A stretch of DNA of 64,000 nucleotides from Nitrospirota bacterium (GTDB lineage: Bacteria; Nitrospirota; UBA9217). Below, in pieces: positions 7,607-63,879 of this stretch. The notes beneath the pieces are model-generated. The model was not told the DNA's origin and did no database searches. It saw only the letters and a program-made list of their open reading frames with translations. Numbering within the stretch: the stretch's first letter is position 1; the number at the start of each line of letters is the position of its first letter. The position numbers and the translations under genes are program-made. The stretch lies in the NCBI GenBank assembly GCA_963741205.1, contig CAVUHW010000020.1, positions 64,001 through 128,000 on the forward strand, written 5' to 3'.

Positions 7607-8944
7607 TCATTGAAGAAGCAACTCTTTTTTTGCAGAAGAAACCTCAAACAGCCGGGGCTTGGGAAGGCCGAATCGGGTCGACAATGAACTGGGATAGGGG
7701 AGATAATTCAGGTTGGCCTGCAACAGTACTTTGCCCTGAAAATCCTTAGGGATTTTGAAATAAAACGTTTCTTTCCGGATTTCCGATGCGTTCAGCCGGT
7801 TATCAAATATTATCTTGACGGCATCGTAAAACGCCAGGGTTTGATTTCCTGCTTCGTCGACAAAGACCACGCGATAGATCCGGCTCCCAGGAAGTATATC
7901 AGCACCTAAAAGTTCCTTGTCAGACGGACCTTCCCCCGTGCGATCATATCTGCCGGCTCCCGCAGGGACCGGGATGAAGACTTTCTTGTTCCCGTTATAA
8001 GCTGCAAGCTCCAGCCACATGTGCCGGAGTTCCTTGCTCCCGGATGGCATCTTGTGCCCTGTCTTTGAATTATCGACAACGACATGGATTTTTATTTCAT
8101 CGCCGGGAGACGCAACCGTTTTTTCTGTTTCTATAATCAGGGTGATCGTCTCCGCCTCTGCTATCTGGGTCTGGGAATGAGCTCCCGGGAACCGGTGGGT
8201 ATACAGGGTTGACCGGTATCGCCCGCCGATACCGAACGTACTGGAAGGGTTAGAAGCCCTCCCCGATTCATAGACCGGTTTTCCCTCTTGGAGGAAGCCT
8301 TTGAGATTCATATGGCAGTCCTGGCATTGAATGCCCTCGGCTGCATAGCGGCTGTTCTTCCATTCCGTGAACGTGGACTTTACTTCGAGTCCATGGTGGT
8401 TTGTCGCGTTATGGCAGATCCCGCACATTTCGCTCTTCGTCTGGAGTTCGGAATAGACATGATGCCAATTGTCCCCCCCGCTAAAAGGTCCCAACTTGCG
8501 ATCCGGACTCGGCTCGGGTATGAAATTTCCATTTCCAGGCGCCGTTCCCTCGAATCCCTTTATGGCATGACAAAAATCACAGACAATACCCGACATCTCA
8601 GGATCTACTTGGTCTTTTGATGTGATGAGATCCCTGCGTCTGAAGGCATCGATGGGAGAATGACATGCGATGCAGGCCCTTGCTTCTTGAACAAAAACAG
8701 CATTTTTTTTAGCCCGGGGAAGGACCTCTTTAAAGTATTGCGCTTCAAACAGGGGGTCTGAAAAGGCTTTCGCATTTGAGATTCCGAATGTTGATTAAGG
8801 ATAGCGGCGTGGCAGGTTTCGCATGTTGCAGAGGGTTGATAACCTTTATACGTTATTTGGTGCGGCGTCCAGACATTCGAAGGTTGACAGTATAATACAG
8901 CATACAATGAATGCCGGATTCAGAAGAACAATCAAGGTCTTCAT
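7607..8944 (-). CDS. Pentaheme c-type cytochrome, cytochrome c554-like N-terminus (split by indels)
   Basis: CETCH, CIACH, CDFCH, CGICH, CQDCH; HRFPGAH; GHKMPSG. Confidence 0.85.
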
Positions 8945-11753: not shown

Positions 11754-14159
11754 TCATTCCCAGCCGTCCTGGACGATCTTCTGCGCCTTCTTGTAAGGAT
11801 ATTTTTCCACGAGCTTATTGACCGGCATCTTCTGATCGCCGTCCCGCATAGAGTGAAGGAGAACGACCGACGCCCAGTAATCGTGGTAGTATTCCGTGCC
11901 CTGGAGCTGCACGGGGACCCCTTTTTCGTTCACCCGGTGGCAGGCGCCGCAGGTCACCGGCCCCGCATAGCTCCCGTCAGGGCTGAACTGGAGGGCCTGC
12001 TCGTGGGTCGTCAGATCGACGCTCTTTTCCGGACCTTCGTACCGGACGGGATAGAGGCCATGGATGGACTCATGGCACGACTGGCAGGCAATGACGCCGT
12101 GCGCCTTGGAATAGCGGTAGAGCGAATACTTGTTCGGCTGGTCGATGGGGAAATACCCCCCTCCGGCGCTTTCGACAAAAGGCGCAAGATGGCAGTCCGC
12201 GCAGTGCGGTTCCGCCCCGGACAACCACCAGTCCTTGCCGTTCGTGGCGGCGTCATAGGGAACAGGGTCTCCTTCTTTCGCGTTCCAGGCCAGGAGCTTG
12301 AGCTTGCCCGCGCTATTTTTTGACGCCCTGACAAGCGTGGCCCCCGCGTGTTTTTCATGGAAGGAGAGCAGCGGATCTCCTTCGGCACCGACGATCGGAT
12401 CGGCAAAGTAGTTCTTGAACCTGATCGCGTCGCTTTTTGAGACCTCGGTCATGATGTCCTTGACAGGCTTGTTCCGCAGCGTCCGACCTCCCTGTTCAAC
12501 GACGTCCGTGAGGTCATCATACCGGTACAGCTCCTGGCTCAAAGCAGTGTGGCAATTGGTGCAGTAGAGGCCCCTCAGCTCCGGCACGGTCTTTCCGTTC
12601 TCGTCCTTCCTGCTCACCTCTTTTAAATACCACTTCCCGATCCCGTTCAGGAAAAAAGGCGGCTTGACCGAGGGGTTCGCATGCGCATCCCTTCGCAGAT
12701 AGCATCCTCCGCCCGCGGTTCTCACATCGGCGTTTGAAAATCGCGGGTTTCCCTCGTCGTCCACGATCTGGAACGGATTGGTCCCGCTGTTCATCGCTTC
12801 CTGCTGCCAGTGCCCCGGATGGCAGGCCTGACAGTTCTGCGTCCTCCCCGCCTTGTCCGGCATGGGGATGTACGCGGCGTGGGCCATGTGGATCGCCTCG
12901 GCGAGCGCCCTCGCCTTCACGGCACTGTATCCGGAGGCACCCGGCCTCGGAGACTGAAGGTTCCCGGAAATATTGTCCCCGTGGCAGTCCGCGCAGTACA
13001 CCGGACCGACCGAGCCGAGCCGGTTCGATGATGCATCGGGATTGTATCCCGCAAGCAGGCTCGTGCCGTGGTGCAGGTCGTGAAGTTCGAGAATGTTGAT
13101 GGCCGCCTCCGACTGCCGCGCCATGAATTCGGAGATGTCAGGATAGGTCTTTTTCCAGTAAGCGTATTCCTTGTCGAAACGGGAAAGGCCCTCGTCCCGG
13201 GACTGTCTGGCCGCTTTTCCGTTTCGGGAATGGCAGAGGTAGCAGTTCGGAAAGTCAATGGGATTGGTGCCGAAAAATTCCACGGGTTTTCCGTCCGCCG
13301 TTACTGGCCTGCCGTCTTTATCTTGAAGCCGGACCACGGAATACTGATAAGGCTGGAAGTCCTTGTTCGATATCGTGCGAAGCGTCCCCTTCCTCCTGCT
13401 GTCGTTGAAGGCCGTGAGCGGCAGCCCGAGCGCGTCCCAGAGATAGGACGCCGTAAGGGTGAGTTGGACGTTCTTGACCTCCGGGATCATTGAATCGGTG
13501 AAAACCTTGTTTCCCCCCGTCGGACCGGCATAGGAGAGCGTGCCGCCGGCAATGCTCTTTCCCGTGGGGCCCGCGTCGATGGGGACCTGTATTTCCTTTC
13601 CCACACGCAGGCGGGAGGCGGTTGACCAGTCGGCGGGGAGCGCGCCTTCGAGGTCTTTATAAATGAAAAGGTGCGTCCAGACATAATTCGCCATACTGTC
13701 TCCGGGGTCGTCCATCCTGCCGTTCCCGCGGACGTCTTTCGGCACCTGCCAGTACTTCATCTTGTTGCCTTCACTGTACGTGTTGTCCCGCACCGAGTAA
13801 GAAAGCGAGACCCCGTCCGCGGGGCTGAGCAGGCGGGGTGTTTCCCCGCCGCCCCCGGTCTTTACTGCCTGGGCCTGGATGCTGTTGTAGGGGGGGATAA
13901 CGCAGCAATAGGAGATATCGAACCCCACGCAGTGCATGCCCAGCTCATAGTTGATGAAGATCGCATAGGGGTCCTTCGGGTCGTAAAGGGTCGTGGCCTT
14001 TCCCGTTCCGTCTGTGATGGTGACCGGTTTAGACAAGCCCTGTTTGAATCTGGGCTCAGCGTCGAGGTAAGACCGTGACGCCGCGAAAACCGCGGCGCCG
14101 CACCCTGCGAGGGACGCCGTCAGAATAAAACCGACGAGGGCGTGGTGGAGACGCTTCAT
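11754..14159 (-). CDS. Large multiheme c-type cytochrome (7 CxxCH), exported, possibly a lipoprotein
   Basis: CYLCH, CADCH, CQACH, CTNCH, CADCH, CQSCH, CGACH; N-terminal signal with LAGC; ELGMHC...CCVIPPYN block. Confidence 0.9.
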   Translation of the reverse strand: MKRLHHALVGFILTASLAGCGAAVFAASRSYLDAEPRFKQGLSKPVTITDGTGKATTLYDPKDPYAIFINYELGMHCVGFDISYCCVIPPYNSIQAQAVKTGGGGETPRLLSPADGVSLSYSVRDNTYSEGNKMKYWQVPKDVRGNGRMDDPGDSMANYVWTHLFIYKDLEGALPADWSTASRLRVGKEIQVPIDAGPTGKSIAGGTLSYAGPTGGNKVFTDSMIPEVKNVQLTLTASYLWDALGLPLTAFNDSRRKGTLRTISNKDFQPYQYSVVRLQDKDGRPVTADGKPVEFFGTNPIDFPNCYLCHSRNGKAARQSRDEGLSRFDKEYAYWKKTYPDISEFMARQSEAAINILELHDLHHGTSLLAGYNPDASSNRLGSVGPVYCADCHGDNISGNLQSPRPGASGYSAVKARALAEAIHMAHAAYIPMPDKAGRTQNCQACHPGHWQQEAMNSGTNPFQIVDDEGNPRFSNADVRTAGGGCYLRRDAHANPSVKPPFFLNGIGKWYLKEVSRKDENGKTVPELRGLYCTNCHTALSQELYRYDDLTDVVEQGGRTLRNKPVKDIMTEVSKSDAIRFKNYFADPIVGAEGDPLLSFHEKHAGATLVRASKNSAGKLKLLAWNAKEGDPVPYDAATNGKDWWLSGAEPHCADCHLAPFVESAGGGYFPIDQPNKYSLYRYSKAHGVIACQSCHESIHGLYPVRYEGPEKSVDLTTHEQALQFSPDGSYAGPVTCGACHRVNEKGVPVQLQGTEYYHDYWASVVLLHSMRDGDQKMPVNKLVEKYPYKKAQKIVQDGWE

Positions 14160-14197
14160 GTTGCTGCCTCCTTGTTCCGGCAAAAAGGATATTCTCT

Positions 14198-14386
14198 TCA
14201 GGACTCGCTCCAGCTTATCGCCTGCACGGGGCAGGTGTCGATAGCCTCCTGGCAATTGCAGGAATCGCATTGATCGGGGCCGGTGACATTCGATTTTTCG
14301 TCGATGAGCGTGAACACCCGGGGGCAGACTTCAGAACAATGACCGCAGCCGATGCAGAGGTCTTCGTCTACGACGGGTTTTCGCAT
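14198..14386 (-). CDS. Monocluster ferredoxin
   Basis: CIGCGHCSEVCP...AIDTCPVQAI. Confidence 0.92.
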   Translation of the reverse strand: MRKPVVDEDLCIGCGHCSEVCPRVFTLIDEKSNVTGPDQCDSCNCQEAIDTCPVQAISWSES

Positions 14387-22598: not shown

Positions 22599-22800
22599 GC
22601 ATTCACCCCTTGTGTATTTATTCTGCAAACAACAACAATTATATCAGATTCGGTCTCCCGGCAAGCGGGAGTATTACGGAGCGTAAAAGGAGAGCTATAA
22701 AATAGGACTTGAACTATATTGCATAACCTGTTATAATTATTGAATATTGTTGCAAAGGCCTGCAACTCGACAGAAGCACACTACTGCAGGAGGGGGAAAA

Positions 22801-23121
22801 GTGAAAACAGTAATGGTCCTCTCGATCATATTGGCATGCCTGGTGATTCCCCTCAGCGCCCATGCTGAGAAGGTGGGCGGCGGAGATTTGACGTTTACTC
22901 CGAAGAATGCCCTGCCGGTCGTGTTCAGCCATGAGAAACACGTGCAGGAAAAAGGCCTCAAATGCACCGGATGCCACTACCATATTTTCCAGATGGAACA
23001 GGGTTCCTACAAGATGGACATGAGCAAGATCACAAAAGGTGAATTCTGCGGGAAATGCCACAACGGTCAGAAGAGCTTCGACGTAAAGGACCCCAAAAAC
23101 TGCGCCCGCTGCCATAAGTGA
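22801..23121 (+). CDS. Triheme cytochrome c7-type protein
   Basis: Signal peptide; VFSHEKH, CTGCH, CGKCH, CARCH. Confidence 0.92.
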   Translation: MKTVMVLSIILACLVIPLSAHAEKVGGGDLTFTPKNALPVVFSHEKHVQEKGLKCTGCHYHIFQMEQGSYKMDMSKITKGEFCGKCHNGQKSFDVKDPKNCARCHK

Positions 23122-26161: not shown

Positions 26162-27380
26162 CTACGGGATGGTCTCTTTCACGAGTTCAACAAGGGAATT
26201 GACGATGCTTCTTGCGACTTCGGATTTTGGCATAGTCGGCAGTTCTTGCCTTCTTCCGGAGCGGTCGAAGATCGTCACCGCGTTCGTGTCGGTCCCGAAG
26301 CCCGATCCGTCCCTGAGAAGATCATTCACGACGACCATATCGAGGTTTTTGTCCTTCAACTTTTTCAGCGCGTTCAGTTCTATATCGTCCGTTTCCGCTG
26401 CAAAGCCGACCAGAAGTTGTTTCCCTCCGCGTTCACCCAGCTCCCGCAGAATATCGTGGGTCCGTTCGAGCTGCAGAGCTTCGGCGGCCTCCTCTTTCTT
26501 GATTTTTCTCGCTGACGGCCGGCTCGGTTTGAAATCGGAAACGGCCGCGGCCATGATGACGATATCGCTGTGGCTGTACTGTTTGAGGACCGCTGTGCGC
26601 ATTTCATCGGCGCTGACAACGGAAACGACCGTTACGCCAAACGGCGCGGCGAGCTGGGTCGGCCCCGAAATCAGCACGACGTCGGCCCCCCGTTCCCGCG
26701 CAGCGGCGGCCAGGGCATAGCCCATTTTCCCGGTGGAGGCATTGCTGATGAACCGGACCGCATCGATGGCTTCGCGGGTCGGGCCCGCCGTCACAAGCAC
26801 CGTCCGGCCTGAAAGGTCTCTTGAAAGGAACAACGAGGAGAGTTCCCCGACGATCCGGTCCGTTTCGGCGAGACGCCCCTGCCCCGTCACGCCGCAGGCG
26901 AGGCTCCCGGTCCCGGGTTCGATGAACCGCACCCCCAGCTCCTTCAGGGCGGCGATATTCCTTTGCAGAACGGGGTTGCAGTACATCCGGTCGTTCATGG
27001 CGGGCGCTATGAGGAGAGGACAGCCGAGCGCCATGAGTGCCGAAGTCAATGAATCATCGGCGATTCCCGAGGCGATCTTGCCGATGATATTGGCCGTCGC
27101 AGGCGCGATAAGAGCGGCATCGAGGCCCGTTGGTGGCCTCGATATGCCCGATGGAGGTCCGTTCCGCATTTACAAACTCATCGCACAGCACCGGAAGCCC
27201 GGAAAGCGTTTCGAAGGTCAGACGTGATACGAACCGGGCGGCGTGTTTCGTCATGGCCACGCGGACCTCGGCGCCGCGCTCGCTGAGCCGGCGCAGAATA
27301 TCCGCCGCCTTGTATGCGGCGATGCTGCCCGTCACGCCGAGCAGGATCCGCTTCCCCGATAGCACGTCGCGCTGTTCCAC
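26162..27380 (-). CDS. coaBC: Bifunctional phosphopantothenoylcysteine decarboxylase/synthase (split)
   Basis: ILLGVTGSIAAYKA, APATAN, APAMN, VTAGPTREAIDAVRFISNASTGKMG, GFAAET. Confidence 0.95.
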
Positions 27381-27385
27381 TGCCG

Positions 27386-27806
27386 TTATTCCTCGGTCTC
27401 TTCCGTCTCTTCGGTCTCGGCTTCCTCGCCGGCTTCTTCTGCGCCTGCTTCCTCGCCGGCGGGCTTCTTCTCCGCCCTCTTCCTCCTGCGTCTCGGAAAG
27501 ATAGGCGCTCAGTTCCTTGCGGATCTCTTCTTCCTTGGCAGAAAGCTGCTCTTCGAGTTTCGCCCGCTCTTCCTGCTTGCGGAACTCCTCCTTGGCTTTA
27601 ATCGCCTCTTCGCCGACGACGATCTTGAAGCTTCCCGCGACAGCCTCCTCGAGGGCGATCGTCGTGTCCTTGATGGACCGCGTCATGACCACCGGCGGAG
27701 CCCCGGCGGAGAGCTGCCGCACCCGTTGCGATGCGATATGCACCAGGCGAAACTTCGTATCGGCGATCTTGTCGTTCATTTCGATGGGGAGAGAAATCAG
27801 ATCCAT
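27386..27806 (-). CDS. rpoZ: RNA polymerase omega subunit with long acidic tail
   Basis: KFRLVHIASQRVRQL...TTIALEE; lies between gmk and coaBC. Confidence 0.88.
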
Positions 27807-27856
27807 TGCTGCTTTTAGCATCATACACCTCCTGGTTAATTCGATTGTTATTTCAG

Positions 27857-31032: not shown

Positions 31033-32845
31033 CTACTCCCCCACCTTGAGCACGGCGAGGAACGCCTCCTGGGGCAGTTCCACGCTCCCGACCTGTTTCA
31101 TCCGTTTCTTGCCTTCCTTCTGTTTTTCGAGAAGCTTCCGTTTTCTGGTGATGTCGCCGCCGTAGCATTTCGCGGTCACGTCCTTGCGGAGCGCCTTGAC
31201 CGTCTCGCGCGCGATGATCTTGGCGCCGATCGCCGCCTGGATGACCACCTCGTAGAGCTGCCGCGGGATCACTTCCTTGAGCTTTTCCGCAAGCTGCCTG
31301 CCGCGGACCGCGGCCTTGTCCCGGTGCGTGATGAGCGAAAGCGCATCGACCGGCTCGCCGTTCAAGAGCATGTCGAGCTTCACGAGGTCGGATTCGACAT
31401 AACCCGACAGCTCATAGTCGAGCGAGGCATATCCTTTGGTCAGGGATTTCAGTTTGTCGTAGAAGTCCATCACGATCTCGTTCAGCGGAAGCTCATAGCT
31501 CAGGAGCACCCGGTCCTTGGTGATATAGGTGATCTCCTTCTGAACGCCCCGCCGTTCCTGGCACAGGGCGATGAGCGATCCCACATACTGCTCCGGCGTG
31601 ATGAGCGAGGCCATGATCATGGGTTCCTCGATACGCTGGATGTCCTGGATATCCGGCAGCTTGGCCGGATTGTCCACCATCACGATCTCGCCGTTGTTCT
31701 TGGTCACCCGGTAGACCACCGTCGGGGCTGTCGGGATGAGATCAAGCTTGAACTCCCGCTCGAGCCGCTCCTTCACGATGTCCATGTGCAGCAGCCCCAG
31801 AAAACCGCAGCGGAACCCGAATCCGAGGGCAAGCGACGTTTCCGGCTCATAGGTGAACGATGAGTCGTTCAACCGCAGTTTTTCGAGGGCGTCGCGCAGG
31901 TCCGCATAGTCCTCGCTGTCCACCGGGTAAATGCCGGCGAAGACCATCGGTTTCACGTCTTTGTAACCGGGGAGCGGGGCCTCGGCCGGGCGGTCGGCGT
32001 CCATGATCGTATCGCCGATCTTGGCGTCCGACACCCGCTTGATGCCGGCGATGATGCACCCCACATCGCCCTGCGACAGTTCCGACGTCGGCTGCATCTT
32101 GGGAGTGAACACGCCCGACGGACTGCACTTCATAGACGGCGGAGTTCGAGTACAGCCTGATCTTCTGCTTCGGCCGCACGGTCCCGTCCACCACCCGTAC
32201 GAGAATGACAACGCCCTGATAGGTGTCGTACCAGGAATCGAACAGGAGCGCCCGAAGCGGCGCATCGGCGTTTCCCGCGGGCGAAGGAATGTGTTTCACC
32301 ACCGCTTCGAGGATCTCTTTCGTGCCGATGCCTTCCTTGGCGGAGGCAGGGATGGCCCCTGAAGCATCCAGCCCGACCACTTCCTCGATCTGCCTCTTCA
32401 CCTCTTCGATGTTCGCGCTCGGCAGGTCGATCTTGTTGATCACCGGGATGATCTCGAGATTATGGTCGATCGCCAGGTAGGCGTTGGCCAGCGTCTGCGC
32501 TTCCACCCCCTGCGAAGCGTCCACCACGAGGAGCGCGCCTTCGCAGGCTGCCATGCTGCGGGAGACCTCATAGGTAAAATCGACATGTCCAGGCGTATCG
32601 ATCAGATTCAGGATATAATCCTGGCCGTCCGACGCCTTGTACCGGAGACGAACGGCGTGGGCCTTGATGGTAATGCCCCGCTCCCGCTCGAGGTCCATGT
32701 CGTCCAGGACCTGGTCGGTGCCTGCTGCGGCCATTTCCCGGTCGGAAAGCGCTCCCGTGTATTCGAGAATCCTGTCGGCGAGTGTCGATTTGCCGTGATC
32801 GATATGGGCAATAATGCAGAAGTTTCTGATATTCGCGCTTGCCAT
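31033..32845 (-). CDS. lepA: Elongation factor 4 (split)
   Basis: [56 protein letters not shown]. Confidence 0.98.
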
Positions 32846-32907: not shown

Positions 32908-33944
32908 TCAGTGTCCAAAATGTTCTGGAATTTCGAATTCTGATGCCTGGAGCTTATTCGTTATTCTGTTGCTTGAATCTCCGGTGCTGATTTTCACTCC
33001 TCTCATTCCGATATTCTGCAGCGCAGCCGCCGCTGCGCCTACCGTTCCTGCATCGTCTCCAAGACGGGATGGGACGATCTCCGTCCGCGCCGCAGGGACT
33101 TCGAAGGCCCGCTTCCTGATTTCATCGCGTGTGGCGTCAATAAACAGCGGCCAGGCATCCTTTACTCCGCCGCCGATCACGATCATTTCGGGATTAAAAA
33201 TATTGATCAGGTTCGCGATGCCGATGCCGAGCATGCGCCCCATGCCCTGCATGACCTCCACCGCGTCGGCCTCGCCTTTTCGCGCGGCTTCATAGATCTG
33301 CTCTGACGTAATCTCTTTGAGAGAAGTCGAGGCGTGCGCCCTGCGATTCCCGGTAGCTCTGCACGATGCCTCGCGCAGAAGCGTACATTTCCAGGCAGCC
33401 GGTGTTGCCGCACCCGCAACGCCTGCCGTCAGGGATGATCGTCATGTGGCCGATCTCTCCCGCCATCCCGTCAGCGCCCTGCCATATTTGATTATTCAGT
33501 ACAATCCCTCCGCCCACGCCGGTTCCGAGCGTCAATCAGGATCATGCTCCTGATGCCGTGCCCTGCGCCTCGCCACTGCTCTCCCAGCGCCGCGGCATTG
33601 GCGTCGTTTTCAATAGTGACCGGCAGGTTAAGCGCCTTCTCCAGCTCATCCTTGATCGGCAAGTTGTTCCAGTCCGGGAAATTGGGCGACTTCACCACGA
33701 TTCCGCGGTCTCCCTGAATGACGCCGGGGGCGCCGACTCCGACGGCCGTTACGGTCAATCCCTTCCTGCCTGCGAATTCCTGCTGACCTTTGATATTCTC
33801 GATAAGCCGCGCGACCACTTTTTTCCAACCGTCGGCCGCGTGTGTGGGTTCTTTGTGCTTGTTCAGGATGTCGCCATCGGGACTCAAAAGAGCCGTCCTC
33901 AAGTTTGTCCCGCCGAGGTCCACCCCGATAACAACACAACCCAC
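32908..33944 (-). CDS. glk: ROK family glucokinase (split)
   Basis: GVDLGGTN, ENDANAAALGE, TLGTGVGGG, GEIGH, CGCGNTGCLE. Confidence 0.9.
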
Positions 33945-34103
33945 GCCTGGCCTCCTAACTACCGAAAATATATAGATTATACGAAAGATGAATATACTAT
34001 CATACTGATGATGAAATGTAAATATTTTTATTAACAATCAAGGTGTCCATTATTGTCTTGCTAGGCGGGGCGACCCCGTAGTGGCTGGTCAAAAAGCACG
34101 GGA

Positions 34104-36298: not shown

Positions 36299-36346
36299 AC
36301 CCGTAAAATTATTGACAAGGCCACTCATGTTTGTTACTCTTTAGCG

Positions 36347-37751
36347 GTGAGTCTTCGTTTATCAAAAAGATATCATCCATTCACTTCCCGTGTCCTGGAG
36401 TGGCTCGTTCCTGCCTCGCTTTTTGCGCGCATGGATATCGCGAGCAAAATGCTTCTCGGGTACATGACGCTCGTCGCGCTCACCGTCATCGTGGTCGCAT
36501 ATGCCCTCTTCAGCCTGCAGCGCATCAACAGCCTGAACCAGAGCATCGTCAAGGTCGATGTCATCGTTGAAGAAGCTTCGGACAAGATGCTCGATGCCCT
36601 GCTCGCCCAGGACACCTATGAAAAGCGGTTCTTGATCCTCAAGAGCCGCGACATGCAGGACCTCTTTTTGCAGCGGGGGCGGGAATTCCGGACCTGGCTC
36701 GACGAGATCAAGAAACTGCCCGACGGGACAGACCTGCCCGTGGGCTCGATCGAATCGCTGTACGCCAGGTATACGGACCTCTTTTCCCGGGAGATCAAGC
36801 TCGTCCGGTCGAAAGACATGGAAAAGGCATCTGCCGTCTCGAATCATGAGATCAAAACAGTTCTGGACAAACTCCTCGACACGCTCAGGAAGCTGTCTGC
36901 GCGAGCCAGGCAAGAACAGGACTTAAAGATGAGCCGGATCAGCTCCATCGGGGGCACGGCATTCTTACACAACGGCGCTTCTTTGCCTCTTCAGCGTCAT
37001 AGCGGGGGCACTTGCCGTCCTGGTGGTGACGCACCACATTTCTTCGTCTCTCAACAAGCTCAAGGAGGCGACCGAGCATATCGCCAGCGGCAACTTCGAC
37101 TACGATCCGCAGATCAAGACCGAGGACGAGATCGGAAGCCTCTCGGAGTCCTTCCTGGACATGGGGAAACGGCTGCGAAAACTGGAAGAGATGTATCTCG
37201 ACGCCAGTCCCCTGACCCGGTTGCCGGGGGGGATCGCCATCGAAAACGTGCTCAAAAAAAGGCTTGAGTCCGGACAGCCGATCGCCTTTTGCGTCCTCGA
37301 CCTCGATAATTTCAAAGCCTTCAACGACCGGTATGGCTATGCGAACGGCAGCGAGGTGCTCAAGGAATCGGCGCGGATCATCGAGAGCGCCGTCAAGACC
37401 AAGGGCACAGCCGATGACTTTATCGGCCACGTGGGCGGCGACGACTTCGTCGTCATTACCACACCCGACCATATGCGTGAAGTCGCCGCCGAAATCATCA
37501 ATCAGTTCGACGCCCGGATCCCGGCCTTTTATGAACCCGAAGACCAGAAACGAGGATACATCATGGGCAAAACCCGGCAGGGCGTCGAGATGCAGTTTCC
37601 GCTCATGACCATTTCCATAGCAATCGTTACGAACGGCCTCCGCAAACTTACCGACCCTCTGGAAGCGTCGGAAATCGCGGCAGAACTCAAGGAATACGCC
37701 AAAACAATCCCCCGGAGCATCTTTGTCGTGGACAAGAGGAGAAACGCGTGA
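36347..37751 (+). CDS. Membrane sensor: periplasmic helical domain-HAMP-GGDEF (GGDDF) nucleotide cyclase (one indel near 36970)
   Basis: Two TM segments; HAMP (EDEIGSLSESF); DLDNFKAFNDRYGYANGSEVL; GHVGGDDF. Confidence 0.9.
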
Positions 37752-38198
37752 GGAGTTTCCTCGCACTGATCTTGCTGGCAGCGATCACGGCATGCGTGCC
37801 GTCTCCCCCGCCTACCAGCTGTGGCCATCGGGGCCGGAACTGGCCTACCAAAACGCCCGCGCTTCCGCAAAAGAAAAAAAATACGCCAAGGCCATCGCGG
37901 CGTACCGCAAGATCACGGCCGACTCGCCCCAATCGCCCTTAGCCGCGGATTCTCTTTTGAAGTCGCCTATCTCCAGGCCTTTTATGACAACCCTCAAAAA
38001 GACTATGAGCTGGCTTTAGCCGGATTCGATGAATTTCTAAAGCGGTTTCCGCACCACGAAAAAGCGCCGGAAGCGAAAAACTGGCGTGTGATCCTGAAGA
38101 CGATCCTGGATATGAAGAAAGAGAATGAACGATTACACGAGAGCATCGAGGAGTTGAATAAGCTCGACATCAGGCATGAGGAGAGGAGAAGCAAGTAG
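37748..38198 (+). CDS. TPR lipoprotein with C-terminal coiled coil (split)
   Basis: Lipobox ITAC; KYAKAIAAY, YDNPQKDYELALAGFDEFLKRFP, LNKLDIRHEERR; start overlaps the upstream stop (GTGA). Confidence 0.8.
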
Positions 38199-40775: not shown

Positions 40776-41381
40776 TTACATTGCCGCATAGTTACCGGTA
40801 CAAACTCCACCGCCTGCCTGACCGACTAAATCATCATTAGTTGCCGTGATAGCGGAAACAACAGATGCGACCGTAAGCAAAGTAGCGGCCGAAGACGTTG
40901 CTCTGTACATACCGGTGCTGTTCGAGTCTCTCGCATAGCACGTATCACCGCTCAGGTGCTTTGCAATAATGAGGTAATCAGGGGTTAAACCGCCTGTGGC
41001 ATCGCTTGCCGCTGTAAATATGCTCACGTTATTGCTGACAGACATTCCGACTGTCCCCTTAGCATTTCTTATCTGCGCTCCTGTCACAGATGCTGTGGCT
41101 CCATTAAGTGGTCCTGTTAGCAGCGTACCCGGTGAACAGCAGTTTGCCGCAGCTAATACAGCTGAGGCAGTGCTTCCATAGTTTTGAGTATCCGCATAGA
41201 GGGCCTCTTCCGATGTCGCAGTATTCCTCGAATCTGAGTTTGCTGACGCATTATAAGCCTTAATACGGTACGCGGAGAACTGCGGGATGGCGATGGCCGC
41301 CAGAATGGCGATGATGGCCACGACGATCAGGAGTTCGATAAGGGTAAAACCTTTATTATTCTTTTTCGCTGACTTTTTCAT
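40776..41381 (-). CDS. pilA: Type IVa major pilin
   Basis: KG|FTLIELLIVVAIIAILAAIAIPQFSAYRIKAYN; AGGAGG RBS; own terminator and sigma-54 promoter. Confidence 0.93.
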   Translation of the reverse strand: MKKSAKKNNKGFTLIELLIVVAIIAILAAIAIPQFSAYRIKAYNASANSDSRNTATSEEALYADTQNYGSTASAVLAAANCCSPGTLLTGPLNGATASVTGAQIRNAKGTVGMSVSNNVSIFTAASDATGGLTPDYLIIAKHLSGDTCYARDSNSTGMYRATSSAATLLTVASVVSAITATNDDLVGQAGGGVCTGNYAAM

Positions 41382-41520
41382 GTTTCCTCCTAATAAATGG
41401 AGTAAGTTCAATTTTGTTCTTGTTGTTCGTTTCATCGTTTTGCTCAAAGCCTCTTGCGAATGTCCACCTCCTTTCGCTCAAAGGACCTCAAGCAATTATG
41501 ATCAAATTTCGTCTGTTTAT

Positions 41521-46940: not shown

Positions 46941-48250
46941 TCAAATGATAATTCCCGTGAGAGAGTTCACCCCTGCGGAAGCGATCTTCACGGTGACGGT
47001 CGAGCCGATAAGGGACGGGGAAGCCGTGACGTTCACCGCCTTGTTGCCCCTGGTCCTCCCGGTGATCATTCCGCCTTTCTTGCTGGAACCGTCGAGGAGG
47101 ACCTCCTGGATGGTGCCTATCAAGTCGCGGTTCTTTTGAACGGAAATCTTCTTCTGGAGCGCCAGGACCTGCTCCAGCCTCTTTTCCTTGATATCTTCAG
47201 GCAGATGACCGGAAAGCTTAAGGGCAGCGGTCCCCGGTCTCTTTGAATATTTAAACGCAAAGATACCGTCATAACGCACCTGGTCAAGGAGCTGCACCGT
47301 CAGCTCGAAATCCTTGTCCGATTCTCCGGGAAAGCCGACGATGATGTCGGTGGTGAGCGTAATATCGGGAACGGCCTCTCGAAGCCTCTCCACCTTTTCG
47401 AGATAGTCCTGACGGCTGTATCTCCTGTTCATGGACGCGAGGACCCGGTCGGAACCGCTCTGGACCGGCAGGTGGAGCGACTCGCAGACTTTCGGGAGCT
47501 CGCGGACCGCCGTGATCAGCCTGTCGGAGAGGTCCCGGGGATGGGACGTCACGAACCGGATTCGATCGATTCCTTGGAACATCGTTCACCCTCGCCGAGG
47601 AGCGCGGGAAAATCCACACCGTCCGTTCGTCCTTTACCGTATGAGTTGACGTTCTGTCCCAAAAGGGTCACTTCCTTATACCCAAGTCCTGCCAGATCAC
47701 GGACCTCTTGAACGATGTCCTCCGGCCTGCGTGAACGCTCCCTGCCCCTCAGGTACGGCACGACGCAGTAGGTGCAGAAATTGTCGCAGCCGTACATGAT
47801 GGAGACCCAGGCCTTGAGCTTGTCTGTGCGGGCAGCGGGAAGCTGTTTTTGATGATAGTCGGGATCGCCCGCGGTGTCGACGAGAGGCGCGCGGAGGGAT
47901 TTCTTCTTCTCTATCAGAGCTGGAATACGCCCGAGGTCCGAAGGCCCGAAGATCATATCGACGTAGGGCGCACGGGAGAGGATAGCCGCGCCTTCCTGCT
48001 GGGCAATGCACCCGGCAACGGCTATGATCAGGCCCGGATTCTTCACCTTGAGGTCCTTCAATCTGCCCAGTTCGCTGAAAAACTTCTGTTCGGCCTTTTC
48101 CCGGATGCTGCACGTATTCAGAATGACCATGTCCGCCCCCTCGGCGCCGGCCGAAGGCGCGCAGCCGCCTGCGTCAAGAATGCCTGCCATGCGCTCGGAA
48201 TCGTGCTCGTTCATCTGGCAGCCGAAGGTAATGATATGATACGATTTCAA
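46941..48250 (-). CDS. miaB: tRNA i6A37 methylthiotransferase (split)
   Basis: TFGCQMNEHDSE, NTCSIREKAEQK, GCDNFCTYCVVPYLRGRERSR, TSHPRD; TRAM domain. Confidence 0.96.

Positions 48251-60674: not shown

Positions 60675-63879
<3,205 letters not shown>

Follow-up and report, generated by a model that had tools for sequence, protein, structure and literature searches.

A putative membrane-bound GGDDF nucleotide cyclase with a Hypr-type serine in a Nitrospirota genome and its relationship to GSU1937 of Geobacter

The Geobacter sulfurreducens protein GSU1937 was reported in 2022 as a second synthase of cGAMP (3',3'-cyclic GMP-AMP) in that species and as a 'Hypr GGDDF' enzyme; it is described as having transmembrane HAMP domains, a GGDDF motif and "many homologues within Deltaproteobacteria", and, with GacA set aside, as the only one of that species' GGDEF proteins to carry the Hypr serine (PMC8835794). 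Here we describe a cyclase gene that spans positions 36347-37751 on the forward strand of a 64,000-nucleotide stretch of DNA (hereafter, the window) from a Nitrospirota bacterium (GTDB lineage UBA9217; assembly GCA_963741205.1, contig CAVUHW010000020.1, positions 64,001-128,000). An earlier note, made from the letters of the sequence, had put this gene forward as an independently derived, envelope-sensing cGAMP synthase. The cGAMP-synthase reading, which rests on the published homologue GSU1937, is a reasonable one, whereas the claim to novelty falls away: the odd Ser is real, yet this type of enzyme is already in print, and the window gene is a new member from outside Geobacter. On balance, we lean towards the view that the locus encodes a membrane-bound, signal-regulated cyclic-dinucleotide synthase of the GSU1937 family.

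When GSU1937 was deleted, the signal from a riboswitch reporter of cGAMP fell, by about 25% in cells on fumarate and by 70% in cells on Fe(III) citrate, and in Escherichia coli a fusion of its GGDDF domain to the receiver (Rec) domain of GacA, termed F4, yielded both cGAMP and cyclic di-GMP (c-di-GMP), with a GADDF mutant of the same fusion being dead (PMC8835794). The same paper defines the canonical GGDEF active-site motif as [G/A/S]G[D/E]E[F/Y] (PMC8835794). In Hypr enzymes the specificity Ser is reported to be functional only where the third residue of the motif is Asp (the 'Goldilocks' rule), the fourth motif residue serves as a general base across the dimer, and a cross-dimer Arg found in 94% of diguanylate cyclases is replaced (PMC6456294). 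The census given in that paper took only GG(D/E)E(F/Y) proteins as active, so that GGDDF proteins would be left out of it (PMC6456294).

The sequence elements on which the earlier note had built its case are all present. The segment FNDRYGYANGSEVLK lies at 37320-37364 (+), where a GGC codon (37347-37349) is followed by the Ser codon AGC (37350-37352) at the base-specificity position; TADD, with no Arg, stands at 37407-37418 in place of the RxxD inhibitory site; and GHVGGDDF occupies 37425-37448, made up of GHV (37425-37433) and the GGDDF catalytic motif (37434-37448). The placement of the RxxD site relative to GGDDF follows the layout of PleD. An alignment of the first 62 residues of the domain with PleD (9g86_A, chain 306-348) required no gaps and set FNDRYGYANGSEVL over INDTFGHDIGDEVL, with the Ser at chain index 343 in 9g86_A and 344 in 2wb4_A and 9g85_A; this fits the specificity Asp of PleD, known as D344. 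Five other cyclases agree with this register: when phmmer was used to compare the domain with solved diguanylate cyclases, the query G-S fell over G-D in all five of the printed alignments. The window protein therefore differs from canonical diguanylate cyclases in having Ser over Asp at this position.

Each of the published sequence hallmarks of Hypr enzymes could be found in the window protein. It has Ser at the position of PleD D344, as do its four nearest relatives, and Asp as the third motif residue (GG-D-DF). In addition, PLTRLPGGI aligns with VLTGLPGRR of DgcZ, which places Gly and Ile at the two Arg positions of the canonical motif, so that both candidates for the cross-dimer Arg are changed. 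Since P0002, the closest database relative (here and below, P numbers denote library proteins and L numbers related loci, with the window counted as an extra row), carries an identical FNDRYGYANGSEV, and since Asp occurs in none of 121 family rows, we regard the Ser as real and not as a read error. The 3' half of P0002 is 80% identical to that of the window gene. The remark in the earlier note that the Ser codon lies two steps away from an Asp codon agrees with the codons of relatives, described below.

The GGDEF-type nucleotide cyclase domain (37197-37748, +) was assigned to its superfamily by Pfam PF00990 (58.2 bits against a cut-off of 23.8) and by TIGR00254 (60.7 against 37.4). Its catalytic motif departs from the canonical definition, with Asp instead of Glu as the fourth residue. 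No NCBIfam equivalog reached its cut-off, YfiN scoring 55 bits against a required 325. A possible kinship with the palm domain of Cas10/Cmr2 was also considered and rejected, as PF22335 gave 16.1 bits (cut-off 27, E 0.013) over 39 residues around GGDDF. Searches of a representative library with the catalytic domain returned 78,276 matches at E<=1e-3, of which 3,463 reached E<=1e-10 and 820 reached E<=1e-30; among the best 150 of these representatives, 144 carry GG-DD-F/Y (138 GGDDF and six GGDDY). Across 49 aligned sequences the G, H, G, G, D and D of GHxGGDDF, the Mg-binding Asp and the Lys of an AK pair are invariant, and the 121 aligned family rows have no conserved Arg at the place of TADD, a departure from the canonical RxxD site that the window protein shares.

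To place the window protein within this clade we used two unrooted trees built from hand-chosen rows. In a quick IQ-TREE analysis of 91 rows, a single split with an SH-aLRT (approximate likelihood-ratio test) support of 98 separated 28 Asp rows and one Asn row from 38 Ser and 24 Asn rows, with the window and P0141, a G. sulfurreducens protein introduced below, both on the Ser/Asn side. FastTree, run on 175 rows, recovered a 93-row group (support 94) with 52 Ser, 40 Asn, one Lys and no Asp. Within the IQ-TREE topology, P0141 belongs to a 14-row Ser-rich subclade (support 92) and the window to a 41-row subclade of mixed Ser and Asn (support 84). The domain composition of the two sides also differs: 31 of the 33 rows sampled from the Ser/Asn side have HAMP and none has Rec, whereas the 29 rows sampled from the Asp side include 20 with Rec (five of them with MshEN), two with GAF, two with EAL and no Rec, four with HAMP and one with none of these.

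The Asp-type GH(I/V)GGDDF proteins belong with the window protein to one GGDDF clade, sharing 40-50% identity in the catalytic domain together with LT.LPG(N/G) and GHxGGDDF. Most of them are Rec-GGDDF proteins from Omnitrophota, Planctomycetota, Chloroflexota and Gemmatimonadota. They differ from the window protein in that they keep Asp, have Rec, GAF or EAL inputs and in some cases MshEN, EAL or HD-GYP partners, and none of their 57 loci has the adjacent lipoprotein gene described below. Rec-GGDDF-MshEN fusions were seen on the Asp side of the tree in the Asp-type P0279, P0324, P0305 and P0335 and in the Asn-type P0382; the joining of a cyclase to the c-di-GMP-binding MshEN domain suggests built-in sensing of the product.

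P0141, retrieved by a search seeded with a homologue from a Geobacter metagenome-assembled genome, is annotated as 'diguanylate cyclase [Geobacter sulfurreducens]', is 436 residues long and has HAMP, FNDHYGYIKASEV and GHVGGDDF. It should be GSU1937, because only GSU1937 besides GacA is said to have the Ser in this species. An alignment of P0002 with P0141 spans 440 residues and takes in everything from the first membrane helix up to the C-terminus; the two are 39% identical over this length (E 1e-102). The window protein resembles GSU1937 in its two transmembrane helices, helical periplasmic sensor, HAMP domain and GGDDF motif (P0141 has the same Pfam set), in the specificity Ser, GHVGGDDF, the lack of RxxD and of EAL or HD-GYP domains, and in its place in the Ser/Asn clade; the same downstream lipoprotein gene is present in five Geobacterales/Desulfuromonadales loci. 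It differs in a sensor about 45 residues longer, in reading GYANGS where GSU1937 reads GYIKAS, in its Nitrospirota host, in belonging to a sister subclade with frequent Asn variants and in being frameshifted in the assembly.

GacA (GSU1658 / Gmet_1914; PDB 6D9M) is like the window protein in its specificity Ser, its Asp as third motif residue and the loss of the cross-dimer Arg, and both proteins would be expected to accept ATP as well as GTP. GacA is a soluble Rec-GGDEF protein with a GGDEF motif, whereas the window protein is of the transmembrane-HAMP type and has no Rec domain. The score of 6d9m was 29 bits (rank 27 of 47 GGDEF matches) with the window domain and 24.6 bits (rank 42 of 52) with the family profile, as against 160-295 bits for the GGDDF relatives of the window domain, which sets the window protein outside the GacA orthologue group. 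As many of these closer relatives keep Asp and GacA scores far lower, the Ser would therefore share its origin with that of GSU1937 and would have arisen separately from the Ser of GacA, in keeping with the separation from the GacA clade that had been proposed. The window protein belongs to the GGDEF fold family, as do PleD, WspR, DgcZ and YfiN/TpbB, and has in common with them the Mg-binding Asp and the NDxxG Asn, and with YfiN also a transmembrane-HAMP-GGDEF layout with an envelope lipoprotein as input; it differs from these enzymes in having Ser for Asp, Tyr for the His of GH, GGDDF for GG(D/E)EF and Gly-Ile for Arg-Arg, and in lacking RxxD.

Within the family, Ser is not the only substitute for Asp. 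The 120 nearest full-length relatives and the window together have 49 Ser, 72 Asn and no Asp at the specificity site (n=121), and all 120 of the relatives (477-544 residues) have HAMP and GGDEF domains. A scan of genomes gave at least 600 stretches; 596 of these were confirmed, and the best 80 loci were used. Together with the window, these 80 have 53 Asp, 23 Ser and five Asn at the site. The closest species-representative genome match among those listed is 59% identical. Among the 120 LepA relatives listed, 12 bear the name of an organism, Nitrospirota or Nitrospirae in every case, and the named relatives of the cyclase likewise point to Thermodesulfovibrionales and Nitrospiraceae. In the 80 loci and the window, each of the 23 Ser codons is AGC or AGT, with no use of TCN; Asn is encoded by AAC or AAT and Asp by GAC or GAT. 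Because the codons are GAY, AAY and AGY, the path from Asp through Asn to Ser consists of single transitions, and the AAY/AGY step explains frequent toggling between Ser and Asn; the trees require 8-11 Ser/Asn changes, at least 3-4 of which are forced by well-supported branches alone. A literature search for Hypr GGDEF enzymes with asparagine found nothing relevant on Asn at the specificity site.

We also noted that in five loci from Syntrophales (L010-L013 and L016) and two from Nitrospiraceae (L003 and L005) the Asn of NDxxG is itself replaced (ADKYGYAWGS, GDKYGYARGS), so that both base-reading positions depart from those of canonical enzymes.

In the window the cyclase gene is read in two frames, frame 2 and then frame 3. 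The 5' part (36347-36967, +; frame 2), taken from the list of open reading frames (ORFs), encodes the N-terminus, a first transmembrane helix (TM1; residues ~35-57 by hydropathy, counted from GTG 36347), the periplasmic sensor and the first residues of a second transmembrane helix (TM2). Candidate start codons are GTG 36347 and ATG 36431. The sensor, which lies between TM1 and TM2, is helical, about 150 residues long, and matches the Pfam families 4HB_MCP_1 (22.6 bits) and CHASE3 (21.6 bits) slightly under their cut-offs. The 3' part (36969-37751, +; frame 3), defined by translation and tblastn, encodes the rest of TM2, the HAMP domain (37026-37178, +; PF00672, 49.5 bits, residues 2-52 of the open frame-3 ORF that runs from 37023 to 37751), a short linker and the GGDDF domain, and ends with the stop codon TGA at 37749-37751. 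The transmembrane-HAMP GGDDF architecture of the earlier note thus stands, as do its motifs; what had been overlooked is that the gene is split across two frames by one base.

Upstream of the gene, a possible promoter (TTGACA-17-TACTCT, 36313-36341) was spotted by eye and failed a consensus scan. In P0002, the N-terminus as annotated can be aligned with positions 36305-36346 of the window, upstream of the likely start and across this TTGACA-17-TACTCT stretch. This suggests that P0002 has been given a start that lies too far upstream and that the region of the promoter is conserved.

The break was located by tblastn with P0002 (488 residues), which matches the window at 57% identity over 221 residues in frame +2, up to 36967, and at 80% over 267 residues in frame +3. 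A single extra base at 36968 (+) shifts the frame inside TM2 (...GGTAFL / TTALLCLFS...), between TTA 36965-36967 in frame 2 and ACA 36969-36971 in frame 3; P0002 reads GGTAFLTTALLCLFS unbroken across this junction. Besides the cyclase gene, at least ten genes of the window are split, several of them housekeeping genes. A ROK kinase (32911-34037) lies in three pieces, which match consecutive stretches of a single Pfam profile; the genes for a MiaB-like enzyme, CoaBC and an ABC-2 permease lie in two pieces each; the profile is matched only in part by LigA, a sigma-54 activator, guanylate kinase, a sulfate permease and a radical-SAM enzyme; and LepA (31036-32845), 95-97% identical to P0393, is read in two frames that meet near 32114. 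Split genes are located, among other places, at 46944-48250, 26165-27824 and 60718-61911. Because so many genes of the window, LepA and the lipoprotein gene next to the cyclase among them, are split, the base at 36968 is most likely an assembly error. The cyclase, which keeps every invariant residue of the family, is then probably intact in the organism and broken in the assembly, and single-base features of a window from an assembly with such frequent insertion and deletion errors need the support of reads.

Directly downstream lies the gene for a small lipoprotein (37748-38198, +), whose GTG start overlaps the stop codon of the cyclase and which has two frameshifts in the window. Its product has a signal peptide (frame 2) whose lipobox is ITAC, a short region that resembles TPR and, at the C-terminal end, a coiled coil that is conserved. 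A hidden Markov model (HMM) built from nine downstream ORFs of relatives matched the window at 37770-38198 (E 1.8e-7), and tblastn with the L001 protein matched it in frame 1 at 37870-37953 and in frame 3 at 37956-38180. Of 23 HAMP-type loci, 18 have the gene directly 3' of the cyclase and in the same orientation (nine of these 18 being the seeds of the HMM), and so has the window; examples among the loci are L001 3424-3855, L008 7780-8310, L015 6930-7532 and L010 7063-7590; in five HAMP-type loci (L003, L005, L007, L009 and L049) the HMM did not find it, and it was beside none of the 57 other GGDDF loci. A profile comparison of the Geobacteraceae and Syntrophales lipoproteins gave a probability of 98.2% (E 3.6e-14), and a profile of the L001 and window proteins gave 96.3% with Geobacteraceae and 96.2% with Syntrophales. 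No curated NCBIfam family scored above its cut-off (BamD/YfiO and YbgF matched below threshold), and the Atlas clusters are unnamed or labelled TPR. A lipoprotein is not mentioned in PMC8835794, and a literature search for GSU1936 / GSU1938 found no paper. Because its adjacency to the cyclase is conserved, which is the one ground for this assignment, the lipoprotein is likely to act as a periplasmic co-sensor for the cyclase.

Taken together, and drawing on the published work on GacA and GSU1937, the cyclase would operate as a homodimer whose two catalytic domains meet in response to a periplasmic signal relayed through HAMP. One purine nucleoside triphosphate (NTP) would sit in each half-site, where the Ser hydroxyl could pair with adenine as well as with guanine, in both cases at the Watson-Crick edge; of the two Asp in GGDDF, the first would hold Mg2+ and the second would serve as the general base across the dimer. 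The enzyme is predicted to make 3',3'-cGAMP and possibly c-di-GMP as well, with no feedback through an inhibitory site. The small lipoprotein would be the likely periplasmic co-sensor, a role suggested by the conserved adjacency.

Several observations weigh against placing the window gene with GSU1937 as a cGAMP synthase. Of the 161 positions in the Pfam GGDEF profile, only 5-106 are matched, and the Arg four residues past the conserved AK Lys, which we take to be equivalent to the phosphate-binding Arg of PleD, is not conserved in the family. The tie between P0141 and GSU1937, as stated above, relies on a statement of uniqueness and not on an accession; the window protein is only 39% identical to the G. 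sulfurreducens enzyme (as measured via P0002), and it falls in a sister subclade, outside the P0141 orthologue group, in which Ser and Asn alternate. The given assembly has no intact single reading frame for the cyclase, owing to the insertion at 36968, and this frameshift could be a real mutation. Furthermore, neither an HD-GYP gene, among the 84 window ORFs scanned, nor a GEMM riboswitch was found, an Rfam scan of the window having returned no family at gathering scores or at E<=1. For GSU1937 itself, activity in E. coli was seen with just one of four fusions, F4, and not with the other three or with the protein in its wild-type form, and F4 made c-di-GMP at about the level of GacA (PMC8835794), which leaves the in vivo product of the enzyme unsettled.

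This last result feeds the view that the window cyclase is in practice a diguanylate cyclase that makes mainly c-di-GMP in its own cell despite the Ser, as does the finding that a canonical enzyme, GSU3350, stayed a pure diguanylate cyclase after its Asp was changed to Ser (PMC6456294); the Asp-bearing sisters, moreover, are fused to parts of the c-di-GMP system (MshEN in 5 of 29, EAL in 3 of 29 and HD-GYP in 1 of 29). We think this unlikely, given that no reversion of Ser or Asn to Asp occurs in the 62 rows on the Ser/Asn side of the tree or in the 121 family rows, that both guanine-favouring Arg positions are lost in the window cyclase and that deletion of GSU1937 lowers a cGAMP-specific reporter (PMC8835794). 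Instead of cGAMP the enzyme might make cyclic di-AMP (c-di-AMP), a linear dinucleotide or a product of another purine pair. Ser alternates freely with Asn, which on chemical grounds would be suited to reading adenine, the GGDDF clade is far from all solved GGDEF domains (best match 45 bits) and Hypr enzymes accept other purine NTPs (PMC6456294), but GSU1937, the sole member to have been assayed, gave signals for cGAMP and c-di-GMP with biosensors that are blind to other products (PMC8835794), and we give this alternative little credence. About as improbable, in our view, is that the gene is a pseudogene, the frameshift being real and no functional cyclase being made: the insertion is present in the given sequence and lies outside any homopolymer run, but apart from the inserted base both halves of the gene are open, the 3' half shares 80% identity with that of the intact P0002 and keeps all the invariant residues of the family, and the splitting of at least ten other genes in 64 kb, housekeeping genes such as LepA, CoaBC and LigA among them, points to assembly-wide insertion and deletion errors. 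It appears highly improbable that the domain is a degenerate, non-catalytic GGDEF domain kept for nucleotide binding or as a scaffold. GGDDF does depart from the accepted active motif, the GGDDF/EAL protein PA3258 is cited as inactive as a cyclase and GSU1937 in its wild-type form was inactive in E. coli (PMC8835794); against this, F4 was active and its Gly-to-Ala motif mutant inactive (PMC8835794), the 49 aligned sequences show no change in the Mg-binding Asp, in G-H-x-G-G-D-D or in the AK Lys, and 144 of the 150 nearest representatives keep the motif.

The earlier note had also linked the cyclase to a Geobacter-like pilA locus and to multiheme cytochromes in the window, and neither link held up. 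A pilin-like gene (40779-41447, -; about 200 residues) lies 3 kb from the cyclase with other genes in between, and when ten neighbouring genes of the window were compared by tblastn with the 80 related loci, it was matched in none of them. PBP1A was likewise not shared, matches to the ABC ATPase were scattered and the downstream lipoprotein alone found a match, in L001. A functional link of the cyclase to the pilin-like gene, to PBP1A or to the ABC transporter was accordingly rejected, the 80 loci having no such conserved neighbourhood, and gene order beyond the lipoprotein gene is kept only inside narrow groups of related loci. The ORFs rich in CxxCH, found by motif counts, lie at 7610-8794 (-; four motifs), 11757-14330 (-; seven motifs) and 22744-23118 (three motifs), all at least 13 kb from the cyclase; the first two are multihaem cytochrome ORFs, the larger of which has MtrC/MtrF-like and cytochrome c7 matches. 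A further Rfam scan, of 14 related loci (144 kb), returned two tRNAs only.

The window gene adds a Nitrospirota member to a family whose sole studied representative is GSU1937, a protein that supplies most of the cGAMP signal in Geobacter on Fe(III) citrate (PMC8835794). In this respect, the wider comparison of the family matters more than the single gene. Some 820 sequence clusters make up a GGDDF clade of their own, which the usual rule for active motifs shuts out; in one sub-lineage of this clade Ser or Asn has taken the place of the Asp that reads guanine, and a lipoprotein gene almost always adjoins that of the cyclase. This lipoprotein is a concrete candidate for the input of a cGAMP pathway. 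More tentatively, the comparison of these sequences raises the possibility that cyclase and lipoprotein constitute a two-gene envelope module shared by Nitrospirota, Syntrophales and Geobacterales, in which the Asn forms represent a second, undescribed specificity class. If so, cGAMP-type signalling would be carried far past the Deltaproteobacteria named in print, the Asn forms could be adenine-preferring, making for example c-di-AMP or purer cGAMP, and Hypr censuses keyed on Ser/Thr and GG(D/E)EF would miss them. The natural series of Ser and Asn forms thus offers test material for the choice of base by GGDEF enzymes.

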